64,000 nucleotides of DNA from Minisyncoccota bacterium (GCA_035583355.1 DATEZQ010000008.1:36610-100609), one strand, 5' to 3'; shown: positions 3,273 through 61,900, numbered from the stretch's first letter. Notes: generated by a model not told the origin, from the letters alone. Numbers and translations: made by a program.

Positions 3273-3397
3273 GGGAATGGGGTATGGGGAATAGGGTATG
3301 GGGAAAATTCATAAATAAAATTCGAGCACCTTCAGTGCTCAAATTTTGAATGTATTTTGAATTTTCCTATACCCTATTCCCTTTTTCCTATTTACCC
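3273..3397. repeat. G-rich heptad inverted-repeat element, copy E1
   Basis: gggaatggggtatggggaatagggtatgggg on the left; its inverse complement cctataccctattccctttttccta on the right. The central hairpin is gagcaccttcagtgctc. Lies between the lepA start and the murJ stop. Confidence 0.55.
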
Positions 3398-3491: not shown

Positions 3492-5183
3492 TTACTGAAT
3501 CACCGTCTCCGTTTCAGTAACGATTGGCTTTTGCTTCCAGAACTTCTTATGTACTGCATCCCTAGTCTCCTTATACTCGGTATTATCAAGAATAGTAAAG
3601 AAGAACATTCCAACAATAACTGCAAGACCTCCGCTAATAAGACCCTGACCCAAAATACCGAGCAGTGTCTTTTGATCGATGTAGGTCACCGAAAACTGGA
3701 GCATGTAATATGCAACAGCACCCATGATCACTGCGACAGAGAAACTCTGCACAAAAGCGCGACGTATGCCAAGCCACACGTGATTCACAATCTTATGCAG
3801 CGCAACCAGCAACAAACTGACATTAATAATCATGCCAAGGGAATACGCGAGCGGCAACATCAGGACACTTGTCCCCTGCAATCCGTCAACACGAAGGATT
3901 GTCTCAATGAAATATCGGAATATCGGAGAATATCCAAAGAATGCGGTGAGGCCATATGCAAAAGCAATAATAAGTGCTCCTGAAAATGCATTGATGGTGA
4001 GTGGTACCTTCGAGTTGCCCGCGGCATAGAATGCACGAGTGAACAGCGAGACGAGTGACTGTGCGGCAACAGAGATTACGAAGAGCGCAAGTGCTGCTGC
4101 AACAAGTCGTGTCGCACTCCAATCAAAACGACCCGTACCTAGGACCACACGGACTATTTGTGCACGAAGCACAACAAAAAGCGCAGTAACAGGGAGCGAC
4201 CAAAAGATGATATGCCTTGCCGCACTTAAGAGATGCTCGCGGAAAAGATGATACTCCTCCTGGGCCCAGAATTTTGCAAATGTCGGAAATGCGGCAACAG
4301 AATAGCTGGAACCGATTATTGTGAACGTGATACTCTGCAGCGTCATGCCGAAAGTAAATATTGCTACACCACCCTCGACGTGTGACGCGATACCAATGAT
4401 GGCAATAGTTGCAAGATGTGAGGACGTGAGAGCAATTGTTCGAGGTATTGAAGTAAGAAACACGCGCTTTACTTCTTTCATGTGCCCAAACAAAAATCCC
4501 GGAACAAGCTTTTCGCGCACAAGCACAGGGAGCATAATAAGATCCTGAAGCAAAGCCCCACAGACCACACCCCACGCAAGACCATAGATTCCAAAATATG
4601 GATAGAGAAATATGATTCCAAAAATGATACCAAGGTTATAGACTGCAGGACTTATCGCATAGACAAAGAAGCGCTGCAATGACTGCGTCAGCGCACCGTA
4701 AAGATTTGAAAGACCCTGAAAGATTGGCGAGAGTAAAAGGATGCGTGCAACATTGATATTCACCGCCTGTTCCGCTGGGCTAAAACCAGGAACAAGCCAG
4801 GGAACGATCTGTGGCATGAAGACAAATGCGACACCACAAATAATAACAAAAGCTGATATAAATGCAGTGAACATTGCACTCATAAATTTCTTCAGCTCAC
4901 CATTTCCCTTTTTCGCATATTCTGCAATGAAGGGAATAAGTACGGTGATTGCTACCGCCGACCCCAGTGTGTCATAGAGAAAATCTGGCACTCGGAATGC
5001 AGAGTAATAGATATCGAGTTGTGTTCCTGCTCCGAAATGAGCAGCGAGTAGACGATCTCTAAAGAATCCAAGCAGTTGTGCAACGAGTGCCATCGAACCC
5101 AAAAGCAGCGCAGCCTCATGAAGACTGCCCCACTCTTTGTGCAATAGGTTAATTATTCTGCGTACCATATATGTTTTCCCCAA
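3492..5183 (-). CDS. murJ: Lipid II flippase MurJ (MviN)
   Basis: 563-aa polytopic membrane protein. The N-terminus LLGFFRDRLLAAHFGAGTQLDIYYSAFRVPDFLYDTLGSAV is typical MurJ/MviN. Confidence 0.9.
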   Translation of the reverse strand: MGKTYMVRRIINLLHKEWGSLHEAALLLGSMALVAQLLGFFRDRLLAAHFGAGTQLDIYYSAFRVPDFLYDTLGSAVAITVLIPFIAEYAKKGNGELKKFMSAMFTAFISAFVIICGVAFVFMPQIVPWLVPGFSPAEQAVNINVARILLLSPIFQGLSNLYGALTQSLQRFFVYAISPAVYNLGIIFGIIFLYPYFGIYGLAWGVVCGALLQDLIMLPVLVREKLVPGFLFGHMKEVKRVFLTSIPRTIALTSSHLATIAIIGIASHVEGGVAIFTFGMTLQSITFTIIGSSYSVAAFPTFAKFWAQEEYHLFREHLLSAARHIIFWSLPVTALFVVLRAQIVRVVLGTGRFDWSATRLVAAALALFVISVAAQSLVSLFTRAFYAAGNSKVPLTINAFSGALIIAFAYGLTAFFGYSPIFRYFIETILRVDGLQGTSVLMLPLAYSLGMIINVSLLLVALHKIVNHVWLGIRRAFVQSFSVAVIMGAVAYYMLQFSVTYIDQKTLLGILGQGLISGGLAVIVGMFFFTILDNTEYKETRDAVHKKFWKQKPIVTETETVIQ

Positions 5184-7551
5184 ATGGGTCGCTCCCTTGT
5201 TCTATAGCACTAATGACCTGATTCAGCAACTCATGGCGAGAGTTCGATTGCTGCACGATTCGGAGCTGCTGCAGTGCAAAATCTTTCTCTCCCATCCTAT
5301 AAGCAGAAGCCGCAAGATAGAAACGTGCATCTGCATGCTGCGCATTGGACCTCAGCGCTGCCGCAAACTGTTTTGCAGCTTCACCGAATGATGCTTCGTC
5401 ATAGTAAAATTTTCCAAGCGCATATCTTGTCGAAGGATCATTTTGTTCTGACTCAACCGCACGAATCAATAGTGCCCTTACACCCTCGGAATCATTACTG
5501 CTCATGAGTATCTGCATGAGCGCAGCGAGCGATGGTTTATGACTCGGGCGAGTAGATAATGCCTTTCGAAACCAAGCCGTCGCGCCCTGCTGATCGCCAT
5601 TTGCAAGCGCTGTACGCCCCGCATAATACATTACATCAGGTGAAGTGGGGTCGCGAAGCAGTGCCGCGCTATAGGCATCTGTTGCTGGGCCGTAAGCCGA
5701 TACCACCCCCAGCGTCGCAAGTGCCTCATAAGATGCGCCCTTTTGCACATAATTTCTTGACTTTGTTGGGTTAAGGCGTACTGCCTCATCAGAGGATACG
5801 GTAGCAACTTGGATAAGTTCAAATGCGCGCTTCATAACCTCATCTTTAGAGGCAACGCTCAACCGCTTCGTCTTATCGAGTTCAAGCAGTGCAAGAACGG
5901 ATATGTCTCGCGCATAGGCATCTGATGGAAACAACTGGTGCGCCTTGAAAATCTCAGATCGAGCGCCGACTACGTCTCCGTCAAGTGCCAAAAGCTGCCC
6001 CATTCGATAATGTCTGAATGCCATAATCTCACGAGCAAGCACGAATGTGATGATGATAATTCCGAGCAACTTAATGAATGCCATTGCAGTCAACATAATA
6101 TTTGACCCCTTGTATGTTGCATTGATGACAACACTCTGAACTAAACCCGCAACACTAAGCGCTGCAAGATATCCACCAATTGAAATAAATAGCAAACCAA
6201 GAACACTTACTCCTGGTGTTCCAAAGACAACAAACAAAAGGAGAAAAGCTGAGATGGTATACAGGGTCACTACAATAAAACCCACTGAACGTGCTGCAGT
6301 AAGCGCTCGGCGTAAGTAGCGCGATGCAGCAAAAAAAGCTCCGAGAAAATACAGTAGCACTGCTGCACCCACCAACCCCGAAGTCACCACTAGTGTAGGG
6401 AAAAACCCAAAACCTTGATCGAATACCTTATCCCAAACTGGAGTAACATTGAACGCGGTATCCTTGTAGCGCAGGAAAGCATCAGCAAAACGATTCGGTC
6501 CTACCCCGAACACAGGAGAATCATTCAATGCCCGCCTTGCAATTGAAGCAGTTTCCCATAGAGAAAGGTGAGGCGAAGGAATGGGGTCAATACGAGTGAA
6601 TTGCTGCATACGCTCCGTTACTGTCGCAGCACCAAGCGAAATATTCCCCGCTCCAAAAGAGAAGGCAAGTGCAAGAACGAAAACAATTATTGCAGTTCGC
6701 GGCACTCGAGTGAGTGCAATTAAATATGCGCCGAGCCAAGAACGTCGGTTATTTACCACTCGAAGCACGTGCGCGATATCACTCATAATTACAAAGAGCC
6801 ACACAGAGAGTACAAGCGTGAGTACATACCACACCAAACTATAATTAACTGCAACCAGTAACGGGAATGGGAGGAACACTCCAATATAACCCCAAAATCG
6901 AAGCGACTTCTTTTCGCGATAAAAGTACAAGACGGAAAGTGCGATGATGATTAACACACCAAGTAAAATCGCAAAATCATGGTATGAGCCGGCCAGTGAC
7001 TGTATACCCTTTACATACATTGAATTTGAGCCAGGTACAGCGTAAGACGCAAGAAGCAATATCGAACTTCCGGCTAGCGCAATAATCAATGATCGTAAAC
7101 GCCAAACTGAGTTAAATACGATTCCGGAAATGCACAATGCAGCGAAAGAGAGTACGATCATCACTACGGTGCCGATTTCACCACCGATACCAAAGAATGA
7201 TATTCGGGGAACGGGCGAAAACGCACCTGCGAGTACAAAGAATAGGAGTGCGATCCATGAAGCATAGAATATCGCACTCCTTGGAAAAGATAATGTCTGG
7301 TCCCTAAGATATGCTCCAATAAGCAATACAGCAGAAAGCAGTACAGTAAATTGGAAAAAGATTGCTTTACTAAATGAAAGACCAAAATTCGTGCCAGGCA
7401 ATATAAACACCGGGAGAAGGAATGACAACATCAGAAATAGGACTGCGGCAACACGAACGTTGAATACACTTTTAGGGAAAATTGCTCCGAAGATACGTTG
7501 CGTAATACTTCGATCCCCCAAACTCCTTCTATCGTGTATCTGATTATTCAT
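5149..7551 (-). CDS. Large polytopic membrane protein with an O-antigen-ligase-like (Wzy_C-type) core and C-terminal TPR repeats
   Basis: 800 aa with more than 10 predicted TM helices. The C-terminal ~250 aa are TPR-like (…ALGKFYYDEASFGEAAKQFAAALRSNAQHADARFYLAASAYRMGEKDFALQQL…). Overlaps the murJ ORF by 35 bp. Confidence 0.55.
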   Translation of the reverse strand: MNNQIHDRRSLGDRSITQRIFGAIFPKSVFNVRVAAVLFLMLSFLLPVFILPGTNFGLSFSKAIFFQFTVLLSAVLLIGAYLRDQTLSFPRSAIFYASWIALLFFVLAGAFSPVPRISFFGIGGEIGTVVMIVLSFAALCISGIVFNSVWRLRSLIIALAGSSILLLASYAVPGSNSMYVKGIQSLAGSYHDFAILLGVLIIIALSVLYFYREKKSLRFWGYIGVFLPFPLLVAVNYSLVWYVLTLVLSVWLFVIMSDIAHVLRVVNNRRSWLGAYLIALTRVPRTAIIVFVLALAFSFGAGNISLGAATVTERMQQFTRIDPIPSPHLSLWETASIARRALNDSPVFGVGPNRFADAFLRYKDTAFNVTPVWDKVFDQGFGFFPTLVVTSGLVGAAVLLYFLGAFFAASRYLRRALTAARSVGFIVVTLYTISAFLLLFVVFGTPGVSVLGLLFISIGGYLAALSVAGLVQSVVINATYKGSNIMLTAMAFIKLLGIIIITFVLAREIMAFRHYRMGQLLALDGDVVGARSEIFKAHQLFPSDAYARDISVLALLELDKTKRLSVASKDEVMKRAFELIQVATVSSDEAVRLNPTKSRNYVQKGASYEALATLGVVSAYGPATDAYSAALLRDPTSPDVMYYAGRTALANGDQQGATAWFRKALSTRPSHKPSLAALMQILMSSNDSEGVRALLIRAVESEQNDPSTRYALGKFYYDEASFGEAAKQFAAALRSNAQHADARFYLAASAYRMGEKDFALQQLRIVQQSNSRHELLNQVISAIEQGSDPFGENIYGTQNN

Positions 7552-7640
7552 ATGGAGATTTACGTCGCTTAAAGTATATGAATTATAACATATTCACTCA
7601 TCCAATAATAAAAATGCCACGGAAACCGTGACATTTTTAT

Positions 7641-7980
7641 TTCCACCCGATAAGCCGAATTCTGTACCGACCGAAGTCGGGGACAATCATTTTTCTCCGA
7701 TGCTTGTTACCAAGCACCTCTAGCGGTACTCCACACTCTTGCGAGTGGGCACGACCTTGCACGGAAGTAAGGGTTTAGCCGTTTCACCCACGAGGTTACC
7801 CTCATGGCTCACCCCACCGAAATGGGGGCTTGAATTCTTTCGTCCTCAAGCGTCTCTGCTCGCACCTCGCGCATTACTGCGGACGGGAATTACCCGCTAC
7901 CCTGCTGCACATATCTTTCGACATGGCCCGAGTTCGGACTTTCCTCCCCTTTTTCAAGGAGCGATTGTCTGGATGGCTTG
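7641..7980 (-). ncRNA. rnpB: RNase P RNA, bacterial type A
   Basis: On the minus strand the 5' part reads CCATCC AGACAATCGC TCCTTGAAAAAGGGGAGGAAAGTCCGAACTC, matching the universal GGAGGAAAGTCCGGGCTCC and the E. coli AGACAGUCGC. The 3' part ACAGAATTCGGCTTATCGGGTGG matches ACAGAACCCGGCUUAUCGG. P1 pairs CCATCC with GGGTGG. A hairpin plus T-run terminator lies immediately 3' at 7610-7640. The ORF-track protein 7739..8050 (+) is antisense to this RNA and spurious. Confidence 0.85.
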
Positions 7981-8071
7981 CTCATTATTACACACAAAAA
8001 GCACATTGACAAGGTACAAAATAGAATGTATTATGCGCCCAGTCCTTTGAACCTTTCCTACAGGAGACTCC

Positions 8072-8446
8072 ATGAGTCACGCCACAACCCTACACACGAA
8101 TCCCTATACTGAGATCATGTCCGGCCTCCACTGGGGTGTCGGCGCTGGTGTCATCCTTGCAGCGTGCTTCGGCATGACGCAGGACGCACTCAGCAACATG
8201 GGAATCACCATCCAGATCCACAGCTATACCAGCATGATCGTGGGCCTAGGGTTCATGTTCGTCCTCAACTCCGCGCTCAGGGAGTTGCATGCGCTCTTCT
8301 CTTCGGTCGTCACAATCTCCTGTGCGGTCTTCTTCGCATTAGTGCAACACCAGTTCGCCGGTAAACCGCTCATCATTGTGAGCATCATCTCGTTAATCGT
8401 ATTGCTCTATGTCGCCTGCCTTTCCGCTGAACGGCACTGGCACTAA
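8072..8446 (+). CDS. Small hypothetical membrane protein with 3-4 TM helices
   Basis: Hydrophobic segments, an upstream AGGAG-like site (caggagactccATG), and a bidirectional terminator at 8459-8494. Confidence 0.5.
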   Translation: MSHATTLHTNPYTEIMSGLHWGVGAGVILAACFGMTQDALSNMGITIQIHSYTSMIVGLGFMFVLNSALRELHALFSSVVTISCAVFFALVQHQFAGKPLIIVSIISLIVLLYVACLSAERHWH

Positions 8447-8458
8447 ACAACAGAAACA

Positions 8459-8494
8459 CCAAAGCGCCTCCCCAAGAGGCGCTTTTCATTTTTA
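8459..8494. terminator. Bidirectional rho-independent terminator
   Basis: aaagcgcctccccaagaggcgcttt hairpin with flanking T/A runs. Sits between convergent genes. Confidence 0.6.
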
Positions 8495-8950
8495 TATACA
8501 ATTAAATTGGATTTGATCACCAACATGCACAGGACTTCCAAGCTCTCCAACCGAAGCGATCTCGAGGACGCGAGATACCGGAGATGGAGAAGTAAATGTT
8601 CTCGGATAAGAATCGGGAGTTGCATGCGTCTCCACACCAACAACTCTCCAGCTCTTATCGATCCAAATGATATCTATCGGGAAATTCATATCCTTCATCC
8701 AAAATGCACGGACCGATGATGATGGGAAAAGAAAGAGCATACCTTCATCGAGCGGGAGCGCAGGTCTTCCTGACAGACCTTGTTCCCACTCTGCAGGATT
8801 CATTGCAAGGGTGACCGCATAGCGTAATGACCCTACTGCAGCAACACCTTTATTACTCACACAGACTGATGGAGTTTGATGTTTCGTAGCAAAAACTGCA
8901 ATGAGCACCATCGCAACAAGTGGCCCCAGAAGTACGAGTAACTTCTTCAT
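8492..8950 (-). CDS. Secreted DUF192 family protein
   Basis: Signal peptide MKKLLVLLGPLVAMVLIAVFA. The DUF192 signature GMLFLFP … FWMKDMNFPIDIIWID. Confidence 0.75.
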   Translation of the reverse strand: MKKLLVLLGPLVAMVLIAVFATKHQTPSVCVSNKGVAAVGSLRYAVTLAMNPAEWEQGLSGRPALPLDEGMLFLFPSSSVRAFWMKDMNFPIDIIWIDKSWRVVGVETHATPDSYPRTFTSPSPVSRVLEIASVGELGSPVHVGDQIQFNCI

Positions 8951-9135
8951 ATTAGGAAAAGTATAGCACTTTTTAATGCAAATGTAGGGGTTAAGGGAAT
9001 AAGGGGATAAGTAAATTCACAACCTAGATACAAAATTTTAGATAAATTTTACAGCAAACTCTCTATTATAAAACTCAAGAATTTGGATGAAGTTTGCCTT
9101 ATTGGAGACAAGAGAACCTCTAAATTACTATGTTT

Positions 9136-9266
9136 TTGGCGAAGGATTTATGGATGCAGTTTGCCCTGCTGGAGCGAGGTGGCGAAGGTAGACGTATTCG
9201 ATATACGGCGACTGAGCCACCGGAGCGAAGCAGGGCAAAATGCGCCGTAAAGACTCGCCAAAAATT
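9136..9266. repeat. MITE-like intergenic hairpin element, copy B
   Basis: Terminal inverted repeats tttttggcgaag / (ac)tcgccaaaaa. Core gatgcagtttgccctgctggagcg … gaagcagggcaaaatgcgcc. Central hairpin cgtattcgatatacg. Confidence 0.6.
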
Positions 9267-9440
9267 TAAAAGGGAGAGCTAGCGCTCTCCCTTCCCACAG
9301 TTTCCACGATGTATTGGAACATGACTTGTTCCTTCCTCCATACTACGCCCTTACTCGGTTCTCGCAATTGTGGATAACGCACAATCACACACTTTGCATC
9401 TACTGTCGAACAATAGTAAGTAGCCTCCACGACAAATTGA

Positions 9441-13880: not shown

Positions 13881-14030
13881 AGGGAATATGGGGATGAGGG
13901 AATTAGGGAATGTAGACATTTATACACGCAACAAAGAAGGCGAGGAGCATTATCGAACTAAAAAATCACATGCCAGATGCATGTGATTTTTCCTCAAAAT
14001 TCCCTTATCCCCTTATACCCTTATTCCCTG
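13881..14030. repeat. G-rich heptad inverted-repeat element, copy E2
   Basis: cagggaatatggggatgagggaattagggaatg on the left; aattcccttatccccttatacccttattccctg on the right. The internal hairpin is aaatcacatgccagatgcatgtgattt. Lies between the HK operon start and the gap stop. Confidence 0.55.
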
Positions 14031-18162: not shown

Positions 18163-18255
18163 GAAGAAGGCGAGGAGGAATGCAAAATACAGGGAGTAAG
18201 GGAATGAGGGAATAATGAAATACAAAAAACACGACATTTATAGCGTCGTGCTTTT
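18163..18255. repeat. G-rich heptad element, partial copy E3, with the gatB terminator
   Basis: aagaaggcgaggag + cagggagtaagggaatgagggaataatg, then the hairpin acacgacatttatagcgtcgtg with a T-run on the minus strand. Shares aagaaggcgaggag and gacatttata with copy E2. Confidence 0.5.
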
Positions 18256-28177: not shown

Positions 28178-28297
28178 ATACAACAACTATGCCTCATACG
28201 AATGAAGAATTTATGAACACAACTTCGTTCTCAATGATTCGTACGTAGCATACTCCGCACAGGCCACTTTGCAACCAAAATAGGCCATAAGGCCTAT

Positions 28298-30492: not shown

Positions 30493-30690
30493 GCATAATG
30501 GCGCACCCTAAAGGGGCCCGCACCATTATGCTTATTAGGAACCCACGGCTCCTAACGCTTTCTTTGAATACAAAGAAAGCTGTGTTCCTCCACGGGGAAC
30601 CTCCCCGTTCCCCGGCCCCTTCGACACTCACCTTCTCGCTCGGAAGCGAGAAGGCACTAGCATGGTAATATTAGTGCTCGTTTTTCTAAA
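30493..30690 (+). repeat. Structured intergenic element R, copy 1 (possible small RNA; ends in a plus-strand terminator)
   Basis: gcgcaccctaaaggggcccgcacc … perfect hairpin gctttctttgaatacaaagaaagc … tcctccacggggaacctccccgttccccggccccttcgac … hairpin ccttctcgctcggaagcgagaagg … gcactagcatggtaatattagtgc + tcgttttt. The head and core segments recur at 31262-31545. Confidence 0.5.
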
Positions 30691-31261: not shown

Positions 31262-31545
31262 ACGTCGCGATGCGGCGCACCCTAAAGGGGCCCACACCGC
31301 CCTGCTCCTCGATTTCATTACATGAACGGTACACCTTTTGGATCTTTTATATCGAAGACTCACAAAAGTCCTCAAAAGGTCTTGCACTCTCGCTCCCATA
31401 AGCATGGGACCCATGAGCGAGAGCTCACCCACGGTTCTCGACGGAAACCCTTTCAGTCAAAAGGGGTTCCTGCTTTCCTACACGGGGAACCTCCCCGTTC
31501 CCCGACCCCCTCGACGTTCGAATCCCCGCGACTCCGCAATACAAA
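31262..31545 (+). repeat. Structured intergenic element R, copy 2
   Basis: Shares gcgcaccctaaaggggccc(a)cacc and tcct(a)cacggggaacctccccgttccccg(a)cccc(c)tcgac with copy 1. Several internal hairpins (ctctcgct…agcgagag; ccataagcatgg). Its 3' end runs into an inverted copy of the tRNA-Ser 3' half. Confidence 0.5.
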
Positions 31546-31600
31546 AAAAGAACAAGTACTCTTGCTCTTTTTTGTATTGCGGAGTCGCGGGGATTCGAAC
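31516..31600. repeat. Near-perfect ~40-bp-arm palindrome: inverted duplication of the tRNA-Ser 3' end plus ~20 nt of flank
   Basis: gttcgaatccccgcgactccgcaatacaaaaaaagaacaagtac | tcttgctcttttttgtattgcggagtcgcggggattcgaac. Confidence 0.7.
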
Positions 31601-31666
31601 CCCGGATGGCTGTTACACCATACTCACTTTCCAGGCGAGCGCACTAGACCACTATGCGACGACTCC
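31580..31666 (-). tRNA. tRNA-Ser (anticodon GGA), class II with a long variable arm
   Basis: Minus strand: GGAGTCG TC GCA TAGTGGTCTAG TGC G CTCGC CTGGAAA GTGAG [long variable arm ATGG…CCAT] CGGGG TTCGAAT CCCCG CGACTCC G. 7-bp acceptor stem, T-loop TTCGAAT, anticodon loop CU-GGA-AA. Confidence 0.85.
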
Positions 31667-55328: not shown

Positions 55329-56126
55329 TTACTGGAGCGGGAATGGAAGTGTAATGGTCGGCATACCAATGGCATGTGGCCCAACCTGATAGTCGCTGAA
55401 ATAAAATGTGATTCTATTTCCGTGAATAGTGAAATTTTCGAAATTCTCGTACTTTGCCCCCGCACCATCATTAATCCACTGAATTTCAACAGGAGAAAGC
55501 ACTGACTCATCCAAAGTACGCTTGCGCTCCTCAATAAGTAATGCGATAGCATCAGCCGAAAGCTTTTCAAGAGTACTTATGTCGCCACCAACGATATCAT
55601 CAATCGCAACTACACGATGTTGCTTCAGGTCATAGTTAAATGTATGCACACCGCCTGACCCATGCGCACCCCCGCTAAATTCATCGTATTCGACAAGAAC
55701 ACTAACTCTTTCCGCATCGAATTGCATAAGTGACCATGTCGCATGATAAGGAAAGAGCTCCGCTTGAGATGGGGTATCAGAAATACTCCCTCTTGGATCG
55801 GCAGTTTCCGCTCTCGCCTTCCAGTTCTCCATAGAGGCTTTATCGTGTTCCTTTATACCCTCTGTTATCAGTGTTGCTATTGGAGCGTTAAGCACCTCCA
55901 GCTCACCCATAAATTGCGGATAATCAACCTCTGTGCGTGTATACGTCCCAACATGATGATCCGAAACATTAAAAACGAGTGGTGTGGTTGTAGCAATACT
56001 AAGTGGAGTAGTAATAGTAGGAGCTTCAGCTTTTGGCGTCACAGCAAAAAACTCAAAAATGAAAAATGTTCCTACAAAAACGATAAATAGGAGGGAAAGA
56101 TAAATCGGAATATGCTGCTTATTCAT
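55329..56126 (-). CDS. DUF4163/DUF3298 (RsiV/PdaC-like) domain protein
   Basis: N-terminal TM, the …VDYPQF… motif, and a two-domain beta-rich architecture characteristic of DUF4163+DUF3298. Confidence 0.6.
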   Translation of the reverse strand: MNKQHIPIYLSLLFIVFVGTFFIFEFFAVTPKAEAPTITTPLSIATTTPLVFNVSDHHVGTYTRTEVDYPQFMGELEVLNAPIATLITEGIKEHDKASMENWKARAETADPRGSISDTPSQAELFPYHATWSLMQFDAERVSVLVEYDEFSGGAHGSGGVHTFNYDLKQHRVVAIDDIVGGDISTLEKLSADAIALLIEERKRTLDESVLSPVEIQWINDGAGAKYENFENFTIHGNRITFYFSDYQVGPHAIGMPTITLPFPLQ

Positions 56127-56175
56127 ATGCCCATTATTCCATGCTATCGCAAATTATGAAAGGGTAAGCATCAGG

Positions 56176-57012
56176 CTAGAGTGGATACCAAACTTCAGGT
56201 ACTCCATTCTTATACGCAGCAACTTGATTCTGCCCAAAATACAATATGACGTTTCCATGCATGACGAGAAACTCCTTAAAATTATTCTTTTCTGGAGCGG
56301 TGCCTGCCTTAAGCCACTTTAGTGCTGCATCGCCAAGCTTTGCACTGAACTTCTCTGTAAGCTGCTGCTTGAGACTGTCATACGCAAAACCAGAAAGCTG
56401 ATCAAGATAATTAGGATTATCTGGAAACATATCAGCGACCTGGAGCATACGATGTCCTCGAACATCATAATTGAATGTTTTCACCTCCTCTATTGTATGC
56501 CCATCACCAACCGCGGCTCTAAATCGAAGCAAAAAACTTAATCTTCCCATATTTATCTCGCCGGGCTCCCAGGTGATACGTAAGAGAAGCTTATCCACAC
56601 TCGTAGGAGGAGTAACTTTCCCTCCTGCAGTATCAAGACCGCTACTGCGCGCAAGCCAGTTTGCCTCTGCCATGCTTTCATGTCGGAGCAATGCATCACT
56701 CACCACGCTCTTTACTGCGTTATTGAGATCCACTGGGCCACGCACGAATTGTGGATACGCAATCTCACTTTTACTGTAAACATTTTCCCCTACCTCGTCC
56801 ACGACACGCAAGAGCGGAGTAGTTACCTGCCTTCTATTGAACATAATACTCGTAAGTGTATTTGCGTTACTCTCATCAATATGTGCAAAATTTATTGCAA
56901 TGAGCACGCCAAAAATGAGCACGACCGCACCGAGTGTAAGCTCGGCTAGCTTTTGTTTTTCCATAAGCCTATTATCGCACATACTATAATAATATAAAGT
57001 AAAGCTATACAC
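56176..57012 (-). CDS. DUF4163/DUF3298 domain protein, tandem paralog (start possibly at 56962)
   Basis: TM, then …IAYPQFVRGPVDLNNA… and a similar domain order to the gene downstream. Confidence 0.55.
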   Translation of the reverse strand: MYSFTLYYYSMCDNRLMEKQKLAELTLGAVVLIFGVLIAINFAHIDESNANTLTSIMFNRRQVTTPLLRVVDEVGENVYSKSEIAYPQFVRGPVDLNNAVKSVVSDALLRHESMAEANWLARSSGLDTAGGKVTPPTSVDKLLLRITWEPGEINMGRLSFLLRFRAAVGDGHTIEEVKTFNYDVRGHRMLQVADMFPDNPNYLDQLSGFAYDSLKQQLTEKFSAKLGDAALKWLKAGTAPEKNNFKEFLVMHGNVILYFGQNQVAAYKNGVPEVWYPL

Positions 57013-57050
57013 AGCGGCAAATGAGTATGCTGTGCTATGCCTCTTGCAAA

Positions 57051-57064
57051 CGAACGATTGTTCG
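57051..57064. promoter_or_regulatory. Cheo-box-type LexA operator (CGAAC-N4-GTTCG)
   Basis: A perfect cgaacGATTgttcg 14 bp upstream of the lexA start, in the gap shared with the divergent DUF3298 gene. Confidence 0.5.
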
Positions 57065-57077
57065 TTATACTATATAT

Positions 57078-57656
57078 ATGCCAAAGCATGATGACACAAA
57101 GAACATTTCTCATTTGAAGGATTTTTTCCGCAGACACGGACGCCTTCCTTCATATAAAGAACTCCTCTTTATCACCGGCTTCTCTTCACGTGCATCTGCC
57201 TTTGGTCTCATCAATCGACTTGTCGCGCGACAGATTATTGCCAAAGACGAAGAGGGGCATCTCTCCCCTGGTTCACAGTTTTTTGCACGTCCACGCCTTG
57301 GTGTCGTCGAGGCAGGCTTTGGTTACGACGCGGATGCCATCGAAGATGACGCTCATGCTATCGATAACTACCTCATTGAAAAACCTGAGGCGACGTTCCT
57401 CCTTACCGTAAAAGGTGAATCAATGATCGAAGCAGGAATCCTTCCCGGCGATATCGTTGTTGCGGAACGTAGAAGTGATGCAAAAAATGGCGAGATTGTG
57501 GTCGCTGAGGTCGATGGCTCGTGGACAATGAAGTACTACCGTAATGAGAATGGCAAAATTCTCCTTATACCCGCAAATCGCACAATGAAACCCTACTCCC
57601 CGAAGCAATCGCTCTCCATAGCGGCGGTAGTGAGAGGGGTGGTGAGGAAATATTAG
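57078..57656 (+). CDS. lexA: LexA-like repressor (HTH + S24 peptidase)
   Basis: N-terminal wHTH (…SYKELLFITGFSSRASAFGLINRLVARQII…). An Ala-Ile/Gly cleavage-site region. S24 catalytic Ser/Lys (GESMIEAGILPGDIVVAERRSDAKNGEIVVA…WTMKYY). Confidence 0.8.
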   Translation: MPKHDDTKNISHLKDFFRRHGRLPSYKELLFITGFSSRASAFGLINRLVARQIIAKDEEGHLSPGSQFFARPRLGVVEAGFGYDADAIEDDAHAIDNYLIEKPEATFLLTVKGESMIEAGILPGDIVVAERRSDAKNGEIVVAEVDGSWTMKYYRNENGKILLIPANRTMKPYSPKQSLSIAAVVRGVVRKY

Positions 57657-57666
57657 AGGAAATCCA

Positions 57667-57752
57667 TGGGAATAAGGGGGATTCAAAACTCACCTATTAT
57701 CAGCATATCCGCAAAATCGCATTCTTCCCTTATCCCCTCATAACCTTATAAC
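57667..57752. repeat. G-rich heptad inverted-repeat element, copy E5 (lexA-dinB gap)
   Basis: gggaataagggggatt … cttcccttatcccctcataaccttataacc. Confidence 0.5.
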
Positions 57753-57766
57753 CTTGTATTCTCTCT

Positions 57767-58906
57767 ATGCGCTACATCCTTCACTGCGATGGGGACAATT
57801 TCTTTGCGTCATGTCTCGTCGCGAAATACCCTCGCTTGCGCAATAAGCCTCTCGTCGTTGGCGCCGAACGTGGTATGGCTACCGCACTCTCAGTTGAAGC
57901 AAAGGCGCTTGGTGTTACGCGGGGAATGCCCATATTTGAAATCAAAGCAAAGTATCCTGAAGTGATCATTCTTTCTGGAGACTATGAGCTCTTCTCTCGT
58001 ACCTCAATAAGGATGCACAGACTCATCGAGGCGACAACAACGGCAGTTGAAAAGTATTCAATTGATGAATCCTTTGCGGATATTACCGAGGCAATAGAGA
58101 AACGCCGGAGCAGCGCTGAAATCATTGGAATAGAGATAAAAGAACGTACGTGGAAACAACTTGGAATCCCCATCTCCTTCGGTGTCGCTCCGACAAAAAC
58201 ACTTGCCAAACTCGTTTCCACGTCGAGCAAGCCTAATGGATTTCGCGTCGCAATGACCGAAGAGACGCTTACTCCTATTCTTGCAAATATACCTATTGAA
58301 AAAGTCTGGGGTATTGGGTGGAGAACGGCAGTAAAGCTCCGTGCACGAGGTATACAGACTGCACTCGAACTCAGAGATATTCCACCAAACGTACTTTCAA
58401 CTTTCGCAAGACCGCTACTGGACATCCAAAAAGAACTACGCGGTATTATTGTACACCCCATCAACCTTGAGCACGCTCCACTGCAGTCAATGATCTCCTC
58501 CCTCTCCTTCCCTGCGACCACAGACAGCGACTTCATACACAGGGAATTCATTAGACACATTGAGCACCTCGCACACCGCTTGCGTAAGCACGGTCTTGCA
58601 GCGCGCACACTTACTATTCACACAAAAAATAGCAAACAAGAAGTCATAGACCTCTCTTGCACACTTCCACAACACAGCAATACCCCGGGCATATTCATTG
58701 ATCATTTTGAAATGCTCTTTCCACACATCCTAAAGCTTGGCGAGCGTATTCGTACGACAGGTGCGGCAGTTACGGATCTTATTCCAGAGACAGCTGCCAA
58801 TATATCGCTCTTTGACAAGAGAGATGCTCGGGAAGAAGTCATATTCAAGACCGTTGACAGTCTTCACAAACGAGGGCTTTCGGTACGTTCAGGAATAGGC
58901 ATATGA
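57767..58906 (+). CDS. dinB: Y-family DNA polymerase IV (DinB/UmuC-like)
   Basis: The Y-family palm motif MRYILHCDGDNFFASC and the downstream …SIDESFADIT…. Terminator after the stop. Confidence 0.9.
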   Translation: MRYILHCDGDNFFASCLVAKYPRLRNKPLVVGAERGMATALSVEAKALGVTRGMPIFEIKAKYPEVIILSGDYELFSRTSIRMHRLIEATTTAVEKYSIDESFADITEAIEKRRSSAEIIGIEIKERTWKQLGIPISFGVAPTKTLAKLVSTSSKPNGFRVAMTEETLTPILANIPIEKVWGIGWRTAVKLRARGIQTALELRDIPPNVLSTFARPLLDIQKELRGIIVHPINLEHAPLQSMISSLSFPATTDSDFIHREFIRHIEHLAHRLRKHGLAARTLTIHTKNSKQEVIDLSCTLPQHSNTPGIFIDHFEMLFPHILKLGERIRTTGAAVTDLIPETAANISLFDKRDAREEVIFKTVDSLHKRGLSVRSGIGI

Positions 58907-58940
58907 ATATAAAAACCCACCGCAAGCGGTGAGTTTTTAT

Positions 58941-61900
58941 TTAATTTGCTGATACACTGATCAAACCATTATGTGTGAGAGGCTTTGTTCCAAATGGGAC
59001 ATAAAGTCCGAAGTAGATATTATTGACTACCGGCGTCGTTGAGTTCGGCTTTGGGAAAGTCAAACCAAGCGTTGCCGTGCTTGTCGAAAGCGTCGTACAT
59101 AATGAGCAAGATGCAAAATCAAATGTCGAAGTTGCAACCTTTTCGTTATCAACAGTAATCGTACTATCTGTCGTCGTAAGATCTGAACCCGCAATATCGA
59201 TACCAAACTGCGCATTTCCCGTATTCTGGAGAGTAGCGGAAGGATTCGAAAACGCAGGAGTCGTACTTCCAATCTCCATACTACCGAAGTCCACCGCTCC
59301 CGTAATGAACGCAAGAGCCTTAAGCGTATTGAGTTCAGCATCGACACTCGCAGAATCGGAGACATTTGCCTGATTATGCACATGCACCGAAGCAGTCCAG
59401 ATATCACTTGCATATGTACCGACATCAGTTGGCTCTGCAAAGTATTGCAGATCTGCCTGACAAGAAATCGTACAAGATACACCCGCACATGCAGACAAGG
59501 CACACGAAGTCTTTAGAGGAGTATAACAATTGTTATCATCCGCCACACAAGACTCACCGAGACTCTTGCGATAAATCGTACCCGTTGCTACCGGTGAGAT
59601 ATCAGCATAACCGCTGTAATCAGTTACTGTACCAGTTGCCATCACCGTCGTTGTTCCACCTTCATTAAGAAGCGAAAGCGTTGGAGTGGTCCAGTTCCAG
59701 TTTGAAATATGCGGAGGATGTGAGACTGACGCCTCAGCAACCTTCGTATATGACACAAGACGATTTCCATTATTGGATACTCGGAAACAATATGTCGGCT
59801 GAATCGCACTAGGAGTGAATTGCAACGCATACTCTACTTCAGTGAAGTAATTCGCGGCGATCGCAAGTCCAGTCGTCTTATTCGACGGATCCTCCACAAT
59901 ACGTCCTGAGACAAAGTTCAATCCCTTCGGAGTAGAGAGGAGTGGTGTTGTACCATCACCATCAGCGAAACTTGTAGATGTAGCCATACACACCGCATCC
60001 GTTGAGCACGAGCTCGATAGAGGAACGGGAAGGTAATTTGCGTCACCAACCGACTCACAGTTCGATGCCCCACCCTTAATCGCATAATCGAGTTCGAGCT
60101 GCTGTCCAGAGAGTGGGGTTCCCGTGTTTCGGATTCCGAAACGTAGACGTACTTTCTCACCAAGCTGTGCTGCACCATATGCGGCATTTTCACTAGTGAT
60201 CCAAGTTGCTCCACCATGCTGCTGCGGCGCAAGCACTATCGTTGTCGGAGTGCCTGCAATATATGGAGTAGCGGTAACGTTATCCCAACCACCCTTCTGG
60301 TACCAGTATGAGAATCCAATCCCTGACCCAGGAGCATAGCTGTCTACTGCAGAAATACTTGCAACCTGCGTACCACTTGGGTCAAACAGTGTTGCATTAA
60401 TCGTTCCTCCTGACTGATAGATCCAATCAATACGCGCAGTATACCAACCCTGTGTGGAAAGTACGACATCCTGAGAAGAAACTTCTGAGGATACATTCGG
60501 TAAGAATCCATCCTTTGTCGCATCCTTCACAAGTCGCACATTCTTTGCGGCCTGCTGTGGTGAAACACAGAAGCCCCAGTTCGAACCACTCGTAGAGTTT
60601 GCTCCGAAGGTCAAACAGGTATCGTCATTTGATGAACCATCAATATAAATATTCTCTCTAATTGTCACACCCGCACCTACTGTCGTTCCGCGCGTAACGC
60701 CCGCAGAAAGATTTGCCATACCCAACGTTTGTCCTGTATCAGTCATTGAACGCAAATACTTGAGTCCAAGCTGTTCAATCGGCGAACGCGAAGCCATATC
60801 AAGTGTTCTAAATGATGCAGTGTCACCCGTCATACCTGAGAGACCAGATTCACCGTCAAAGAAATAGGTGAAGACCGAGGCACCCGAGGATGACGCTGCG
60901 GCACTCGCATTACCATAATAGACATAGACATCCGCACTTGACTGCGCAGCAAGCGTAGGTACCTTAACCCACACATTCGCACTCGCGGTCGTGTATGTTT
61001 CGATCCAGAATGGAATCGTCGTTGTACCATTGTTTGCAGTGAAACGAATATCTCGGTAATCTGCCTGCATTTGTGACTGATATGGTAAATTGACTTTCAC
61101 TGCAACATTCGTTGCAGCTGAGCTTGTATTGTTCACCACATGGACTCGCTGGCGATGCGTCCAACCCGAGGCTGCACCACCGTACCATTCACTATCCGGC
61201 ACCGCCTCCCCTCCGTCGTCATGACGCCACCTATAGTAACGTTGATCAACGAACTGACAGAGCGAATCATCCCATCTGAATGCTCCACAGGCGCCTGGTG
61301 AACCATCATTATCTGCGGACTCACCCGCAAGGTTCCCTACCGCACTACTGAAGTTCAACGCATTCGTTGAAGTACCGTTCAAGTAGGCGTTGACCCCTGA
61401 AGTGTGACCCGTATCAAGTGCGAAGCTGTTATTTGCAAGAATTGCGCCTGAGTTTGCATCAACAGTACTACCATCGATGTAAAGTATATTTCCCGTATCG
61501 ACTCCTGTTGCAAGATCTGCATTCTCAAGTGCCGTAATTACCGTATTTCCCGTAAGCTGCAGACCGTTCGCAGTAGTATTACGCATCTTGAAGTAACGAC
61601 CCTCGAAAGTTCCACTCGAGACAGAAAGACCATAAGTTCCTGACAGTGACTGTACTGAGGTTACTGCACCTGAGCTACCGACTATATGTAATTCTGTCCC
61701 ACTATTCCATGTCGCCGTGCTCCCTGGTGCGAATCGCACATTGACGGTTCGTGAAGCAATCGCAGTACCATCAAAATTCGTCGTCGCCGACCAATAATCA
61801 CTTCCGACATTGCGTACGTAATTACCATAAATATTGAGAGCTCCATTCACATTTGCGTAGTTCTGCGCATAGAGCGAAGCACCCCCTGCCGTAGTGACGC

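Follow-up and report, generated by a model that had tools for sequence, protein, structure and literature searches.

Which genes are controlled by a palindrome that lies between two divergent transcription units? This question is raised by a locus in a 64,000-nucleotide stretch of DNA from a Minisyncoccota bacterium (GCA_035583355.1 DATEZQ010000008.1:36610-100609), which we call the window and whose positions are counted from its first letter. A gene for a LexA-type repressor (lexA) is followed there, on the same strand, by a gene for a Y-family translesion polymerase, and is divergent from two tandem genes encoding DUF3298 domains (DUF3298_B, next to lexA, and DUF3298_A). An earlier note on this DNA had placed a LexA operator of the Gram-positive type (a Cheo box) in the shared upstream region and had suggested that it might bring the DUF3298 pair under SOS control. 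Our computational analysis indicates that lexA and the polymerase gene very probably form an autoregulated two-gene SOS operon in a bacterium of the Patescibacteria (candidate phyla radiation). The DUF3298 genes most likely stand outside it. Systems of this kind are known and the finding itself is ordinary; its use lies in the annotation of an SOS switch for an uncultured lineage that has been little studied, with the lexA start, promoter, operator, operon partner and terminator.

The whole 64 kb contained a single exact match to CGAAC-N4-GTTCG, namely CGAACGATTGTTCG at 57051–57064 (a palindrome, to which no strand is assigned). The chance expectation for the window was 0.06, and six of 100 shuffled sequences yielded at least one match. 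A promoter scan identified the lexA promoter on the plus strand, with TTGCAA at −35 (57044–57049) and TATACT at −10 (57066–57071). The spacer between these hexamers is 16 nt and is occupied by the predicted operator. The palindrome is 13 nt from the lexA ATG at 57078 (14 bp had been given in the earlier note). The −10 hexamer ends only 6 nt upstream of the same ATG, so the lexA mRNA is probably leaderless. As in a Cheo-box SOS regulon, a perfect GAAC-N4-GTTC palindrome here overlaps the promoter of lexA, a core SOS gene. This motif is documented for LexA of Firmicutes, Actinobacteria and Gallionellales, and Cyanobacteria and Chloroflexi have variants of it (PMC4951493).

Loosening the motif revealed no enrichment in the window: the full pattern at two mismatches gave 33 sites (27.3 expected) and the core with one mismatch gave 26 (25.2 expected). 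The sole intergenic one-mismatch core, at 28215, precedes a gene for a two-component response regulator and was ruled out as a second box; no other credible box was seen in the 64 kb. Because the relaxed counts showed no enrichment, the case for the operator rests on its position and its conservation.

The named homologues of this LexA and the related loci came overwhelmingly from metagenome-assembled genomes of Patescibacteria / Paceibacterota. As reference relatives we used loci L081, L082 and L001, whose LexA proteins are 93%, 86% and 59% identical to that of the window. Synteny with L081 and L082 is complete and comprises RNase J, a periplasmic binding protein, two DUF3298 proteins, lexA, the polymerase and a giant surface protein. 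In a four-way alignment of the upstream regions, the arms of the box and the −10 hexamer were kept throughout, while the 4-nt spacer of the box varied (GATT, AAGT, AATT and AATT), as did the 6 nt before the lexA ATG. Conserved arms and −10 hexamer together with a varying spacer and flank are the pattern expected of a functional promoter-operator. The TTGCAA hexamer was kept in L081 and L082; L001 was without a clear −35.

The same layout was found in the larger set of relatives. Of 82 loci, 52 had an exact GAAC-N4-GTTC core in the 120 nt upstream of lexA. The background amounted to 31 cores over 740 kb (0.006 per 135 nt), so that a frequency of 63% upstream of lexA relatives compares with 0.6% expected, a roughly hundredfold enrichment. 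Even among the 31 background cores, 17 were the same promoter and box, located 236–426 nt upstream of lexA before a small open reading frame (ORF). Most of the other loci carried a box with one mismatch or a GTAC-N4-GTAC variant. In the 53 promoters with an exact core, TAnnnT followed within 8 nt of the core in 46 cases, the −35 and −10 hexamers were 16–18 nt apart in 41, and 6–8 nt lay between the −10 and the start codon in 31. TTG was found at the −35 position in most related loci. These data agree with the assignment of the operator to the Firmicutes/Actinobacteria type made in the earlier note, as the same core occurs at the same promoter position upstream of most related lexA genes.

The position of the lexA start codon bears directly on the operator. 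The longest ORF over lexA opens at 57021 and would enclose the box, the very situation that had been named as damaging to the operator assignment. In close homologues, however, at 93%, 86%, 71% and lower identity, the protein always starts at the equivalent of 57078. Since the homologues start there and a conserved, noncoding promoter occupies the DNA upstream, we rejected the longer ORF, and the box lies outside the gene.

From this start, lexA (57078–57656, plus strand) encodes 192 amino acids that comprise a winged helix-turn-helix (wHTH), a linker that contains the predicted cleavage site Ala79-Gly80, and an S24 domain to which Ser115 and Lys152 belong. The product matched Pfam Peptidase_S24 (3.3e-23), and its C-terminal domain matched UmuD (83 bits). 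The TIGR00498 LexA model aligned to residues 14–191, while residues 13–190 aligned to LexA chains in the PDB, including E. coli and Thermotoga LexA. Residues A79, G80, S115 and K152 were invariant across 15 homologues, and databases name the homologues 'transcriptional repressor LexA'. A structure model built on 15 homologues contained helices at residues 7–20, 26–33 and 38–50 and a beta-hairpin wing at 54–64 (predicted local distance difference test scores of 81–90), as well as a disordered linker and an S24 barrel. When this model was used in a fold search, the best matches were the full-length LexA 3k2z (template modelling score 0.69) and the LexA–DNA complex 3jso. Identity to the solved LexA structures was 25–28%. 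On the basis of the full-length alignments, the wHTH and wing of the model, the fold matches and the invariant cleavage and catalytic residues, we conclude that the protein is a divergent yet complete two-domain LexA.

The second gene of the operon (57767–58906, plus strand) encodes a Y-family translesion polymerase of 379 amino acids that resembles DinB / Pol IV. Pfam reported the domains IMS (9.5e-37), IMS_HHH and IMS_C, the translation carries the catalytic motifs DGDNFFAS and SIDESF, and the best match in the PDB was Pol IV 7yll (1e-39). The best NCBIfam model for Pol IV gave 165.8 bits (cut-off 256) and that for UmuC 149.4 bits (cut-off 431). As all equivalog cut-offs were missed and Pol IV scored only slightly above UmuC, 'Y-family, DinB-like' appears to be the safest label. 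The gene had previously been called dinB. A Y-family polymerase gene does follow lexA on the same strand, but the score required of a Pol IV equivalog was not reached.

In scans for promoters and terminators, nothing resembling either was flagged between lexA and the polymerase gene. Downstream of the latter, a terminator-like hairpin with a T-run (CACCGCAAGCGGTG then AGTTTTTATT; 58918–58941, plus strand, with a mirror site on the minus strand) ends the operon and is common to the convergent giant gene. A polymerase gene was located downstream of lexA in 44 of 80 related loci, which belong to several phyla. This linkage in relatives, the lack of an intervening promoter or terminator and the hairpin downstream of the polymerase gene lead us to treat lexA and the polymerase gene as one operon served by a single box.

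The two genes are separated by 110 bp (57657–57766) that hold an imperfect inverted repeat with G-rich and C-rich heptad-like arms, GGGAATAAGGG / CCCTTATCCCC. The element as a whole extends over 57654–57767 (no strand assigned); its paired segments are 57654–57677 with 57744–57767 and 57668–57678 with 57727–57737. The corresponding junction in L081 (6580–6586) is empty, with 1 nt separating the stop codon of lexA from the ATG of the polymerase gene, and with respect to that locus the 110 bp of the window represent an insertion. The L082 junction (6585–7021) accommodates a gene of the 23S_rRNA_IVP/bAvd type (116 amino acids) between perfect 32-nt inverted repeats, which also provide the start codon of the polymerase gene. 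Since the window and L082 hold different inverted-repeat elements and L081 none, the junction seems to attract such elements. Folded as RNA, the element of the window was no better than shuffled sequences (z = 0.31), and no Rfam family was matched in the gap. It had been listed in the earlier note as one of the G-rich heptad elements of this DNA; it resembles the arrays of the window but is only a short, degenerate member. The arrays proper, of the GGGAATA / GGGGTAT type, are at 3273–3303, 8987–9005, 13882–13908 with 14010–14028, and 18192–18210. They are intergenic and lie immediately upstream of minus-strand gene starts, and some of them have a C-rich inverted partner on the other side of a small hairpin.

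Taken as an SOS operon, the locus would work as follows. A LexA dimer bound to the palindrome in the TTGCAA/TATACT spacer would exclude RNA polymerase from the promoter. Upon DNA damage, RecA would stimulate self-cleavage of LexA between Ala79 and Gly80 by the Ser115/Lys152 dyad, and the repressor would be removed. A transcript, probably leaderless, would then begin on or beside the lexA ATG, continue across the inverted-repeat element and the polymerase gene, and stop at the hairpin at 58918.

Several observations weigh against the SOS operon, which is itself a computational reading. The single box of the window does not demonstrate a regulon, and the usual SOS genes, including recA, were not found among the 26 proteins of the window that were scanned with Pfam. 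The lexA product scored 95.6 bits with TIGR00498, below the equivalog threshold of 110.95, and was not matched by Pfam LexA_DNA_bind. Finally, the polymerase gene is without a Shine-Dalgarno-like sequence and is parted from lexA by the 110 bp of the inverted-repeat element, which may affect read-through or processing.

An alternative is a more local regulator, in which LexA governs only its own lexA-polymerase module, a self-contained and perhaps transferable mutagenesis cassette like HdiR-umuC, UmuDAb or the LexA2 of betaproteobacteria, and has no genome-wide regulon. We consider this possible but rather unlikely. The arrangement of promoter, operator, lexA and polymerase gene recurs over several phyla at 40–50% LexA identity; locus L029, with two lexA cassettes within 5 kb, fits a self-contained unit; and neither the window nor the 5-kb flanks of the relatives yielded another box. 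Minimal networks of an S24 regulator and a polymerase also have precedents (PMC8565304). However, 64 kb is too short for judging a regulon, and the synteny of housekeeping neighbours in L081 and L082 opposes recent mobility at this locus. Whatever its reach, the compact leaderless lexA-polymerase module recurs in Patescibacteria, Nitrospirota, Syntrophales-type and betaproteobacterial loci, and it may interest students of the evolution and spread of SOS networks.

We now turn to the divergent genes. Gram-positive LexA represses membrane-anchored division inhibitors that are encoded divergently from lexA, as in the case of yneA, sosA and Rv2719c/chiZ. Given these precedents, the idea that a single box might also repress the DUF3298 pair was reasonable. 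DUF3298_B (56176–56964, minus strand) encodes 262 amino acids with a DUF3298 match of 8.1e-07; its start, ATG 56964, is backed by an equivalent ATG in the gene call of L082. DUF3298_A (55329–56126, minus strand) encodes a membrane-anchored protein of 265 amino acids with a DUF3298 match of 5e-10 and a weak PdaC/DUF4163 match (3.6e-06; 28.4 bits, under the cut-off of 29.1). The full-length identity of the two proteins is 26% (E = 3e-31). They are old paralogues, in tandem and divergent from lexA as had been described. Both are single-pass proteins, with an N-terminal hydrophobic helix seen in the translation.

Bidirectional control by the box is improbable. The promoter predicted for DUF3298_B (56998–56971, minus strand) consists of TTTATA, 16 nt and the extended −10 TGcGATAAT (56979–56971), which ends 6 nt short of the ATG. 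L081 and L082 have kept this block, and the GATAAT, 6 nt and ATG are also found in L001. It is ≈75–80 bp from the box, whose centre is near −94 relative to the predicted DUF3298_B start. In L001, which has one DUF3298 gene, the corresponding distance is ≈ −56, so the placement of the box with respect to DUF3298 is not conserved. L081, L082, L083 and L001, which are the closest loci, all keep a divergent gene for a membrane-anchored extracytoplasmic protein, and the promoter scan detected minus-strand promoter-like hexamers that overlap the box; both features would suit a shared operator. These hexamers are weak, however, and unconserved in L081 and L082, and they were rejected as drivers of the DUF3298 genes. 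The conserved DUF3298_B promoter contains neither GAAC nor GTTC and thus differs from the YneA/SosA/ChiZ type, with its box over the inhibitor promoter. A second box or half-site is also absent from the lexA/DUF3298_B intergenic region. As for DUF3298_A, we read from the sequence a TGgAATAAT that ends 6 nt before the ATG (56141–56124, minus strand).

DUF3298 genes from elsewhere gave no sign of a link to LexA either. A profile search supplied 80 metagenomic DUF3298 loci (a prior scan with one protein had returned none). None of the 80 had lexA or a polymerase gene within 3 kb, and none of the 67 usable loci had a box at −300 to +30; DnaA-like 9-mers were present near the gene in three of the 67. 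Adjacency of DUF3298 to lexA is limited to close relatives of the window locus. Both the geometry and the comparative data oppose SOS control, and we conclude that DUF3298_A and DUF3298_B are most likely neither controlled by LexA nor part of the SOS unit. A tempting link of envelope genes to the SOS response is thereby removed from the annotation as unsupported.

The two proteins had also been described as RsiV-like. Like proteins of the RsiV / PdaC type, they possess a single N-terminal membrane helix and an extracytoplasmic domain of the DUF4163/DUF3298 type (the PdaC match being weak). In contrast to RsiV, the helix begins at residue ≈9–10 in both proteins; only ≈8–10 residues precede it, which leaves no room for an anti-sigma domain. 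There is no sigma-factor gene adjacent to the pair, the neighbours being the genes for the periplasmic binding protein and LexA. Within the pair, DUF3298_B is without the FSGGAHG motif present in DUF3298_A and in the L001 gene, and has AVGDGHT where these retain FSGGAHGS. The same loss in the lexA-proximal paralogue was repeated in L081 and L082.

That the palindrome is a chance match (six of 100 shuffles do yield one) or part of a longer lexA gene opening at 57021 is hardly credible, since the comparative data, namely the conserved arms amid varying flanking bases, the roughly hundredfold enrichment of the core and the N-termini of the homologues, contradict both.

The gap between the divergent promoters contains a further conserved element, the DnaA-box-like 9-mer CTATACACA at 57004–57012 (plus strand), which is identical in L081 and L082. 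It is one short of the eight specified positions of TTATNCACA and is related to TTATCCACA, an element that many lexA promoters of Patescibacteria carry shortly before the −35. TTATCCACA matches the DnaA-box consensus, is on the lexA strand and ends ≈8 nt before the −35. Among 35 lexA-operon promoters of Patescibacteria it was perfect in 13 and had one mismatch in 12 more, compared with rates of 0.24% and 1.8% in random windows. In 933 kb-strands of Patescibacteria sequence, 17 of the 40 perfect copies were directly upstream of a LexA box. Likewise, TTATNCACA was found on the lexA strand, ending 15–19 nt before the GAAC core, with 0–1 mismatch in 25 of the 35 promoters. The loci concerned include L002, L006, L007, L013, L014, L016, L019 and L024, and further L031, L042, L046, L050, L052, L059, L064 and L065. 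TTATNCACA was absent from the lexA loci of Nitrospirota, of the Syntrophales type and of betaproteobacteria. The window retains only the distal, degenerate copy CTATACACA, the proximal copy having decayed in its lineage. We tentatively suggest that the lexA operon promoter of Patescibacteria may have two inputs, LexA and DnaA, the latter being proposed as the binding protein from the motif. Co-regulation by DnaA and LexA has a precedent in E. coli uvrB (PMC6015884). If such a dual input were true, replication status rather than LexA could link the divergent lexA and DUF3298 genes.

Among described systems, the closest to the SOS operon of the window is LexA of Firmicutes and Actinobacteria (DinR; B. 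subtilis, M. tuberculosis). Shared features are the 14-bp palindrome, an operator overlapping the lexA promoter, and a repressor with wHTH and S24 domains, an Ala-Gly site and a Ser/Lys dyad. Here, in contrast, the host belongs to the Patescibacteria, and the protein is below the TIGR00498 cut-off and distant from the solved LexA structures, as described above. The single box is placed exactly in the −35/−10 spacer, the lexA start is apparently leaderless, and the polymerase gene is joined into the lexA operon. A LexA of non-canonical specificity in Gallionellales / Betaproteobacteria targets GAAC-N4-GTTC (Sanchez-Alberola et al. 2015, cited in PMC4951493); in the genomes concerned it is a second LexA. 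Betaproteobacterial loci are indeed relatives of the present LexA, at 37–41% identity, with the same box at the same promoter position; several of them have the GTAC-N4-GTAC variant instead. The SOS network of Patescibacteria has reportedly been the subject of a comparative study by Sanchez-Osuna, Barbe and Erill (Environ Microbiol 2017), which concerns the same superphylum and regulator and which a citing paper groups with LexA motif changes that include direct repeats.

The umuDC, HdiR-umuC and UmuDAb cassettes share with the window an S24 self-cleaving protein encoded immediately upstream of a co-regulated Y-family polymerase (background in PMC8565304). In the window, by contrast, the S24 protein has a wHTH of the LexA type and aligns with LexA over its full length, and the polymerase is nearer to Pol IV than to UmuC by the scores given above.

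Three further features of the related lexA loci were observed. In L008, L033, L045, L069, L071, L073, L076 and L078, a GTAC-N4-GTAC palindrome occupies the promoter position of the box, which suggests a switch of operator specificity inside this LexA clade. In other Patescibacteria loci, a conserved ORF of 62–78 amino acids heads the box-controlled operon before lexA (L006, L007, L012–L014, L016, L023, L024, L029, L031, L032, L038, L042, L050, L052 and L056). Its product has the motif EIxxLNxxIDxKIIxGxxYxxEARRHK followed by a hydrophobic C-terminal tail; it matched no Pfam family, and the ORF is absent from the window. The two lexA genes of L029 are at 5001–5573 and 8828–9355; the second is followed by a polymerase gene at 7612–8721 and has its own box, AGAACGTTTGTTCT, at 9401.

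Elsewhere in the window, about 20 of 57 predicted genes have TAnnnT 5–8 nt before the start codon, often preceded by TGn, and no Shine-Dalgarno-like sequence. Examples are the genes starting at 8950, 9884, 13821, 19668, 30478, 31782, 32631, 36487, 48378, 48711 and 54049. About 10 genes have a GGAG-type site. Because the −10-to-start geometry recurs at about 20 of the 57 genes, leaderless mRNAs are probably common in this organism. Near one end of the window, on the minus strand (205–293), three DnaA-box-like 9-mers (225–233, 262–270 and 285–293) surround a TTGACA-17-TATAAT promoter; no ORF was found downstream of it in positions 1–200. Finally, two C-rich segments ≈900 bp apart (30583–30645 and 31469–31540) share a near-identical CACGGGGAACCTCCCCGTTCCCCG, and the second of them adjoins the sole tRNA gene of the window (31580–31666, minus strand).

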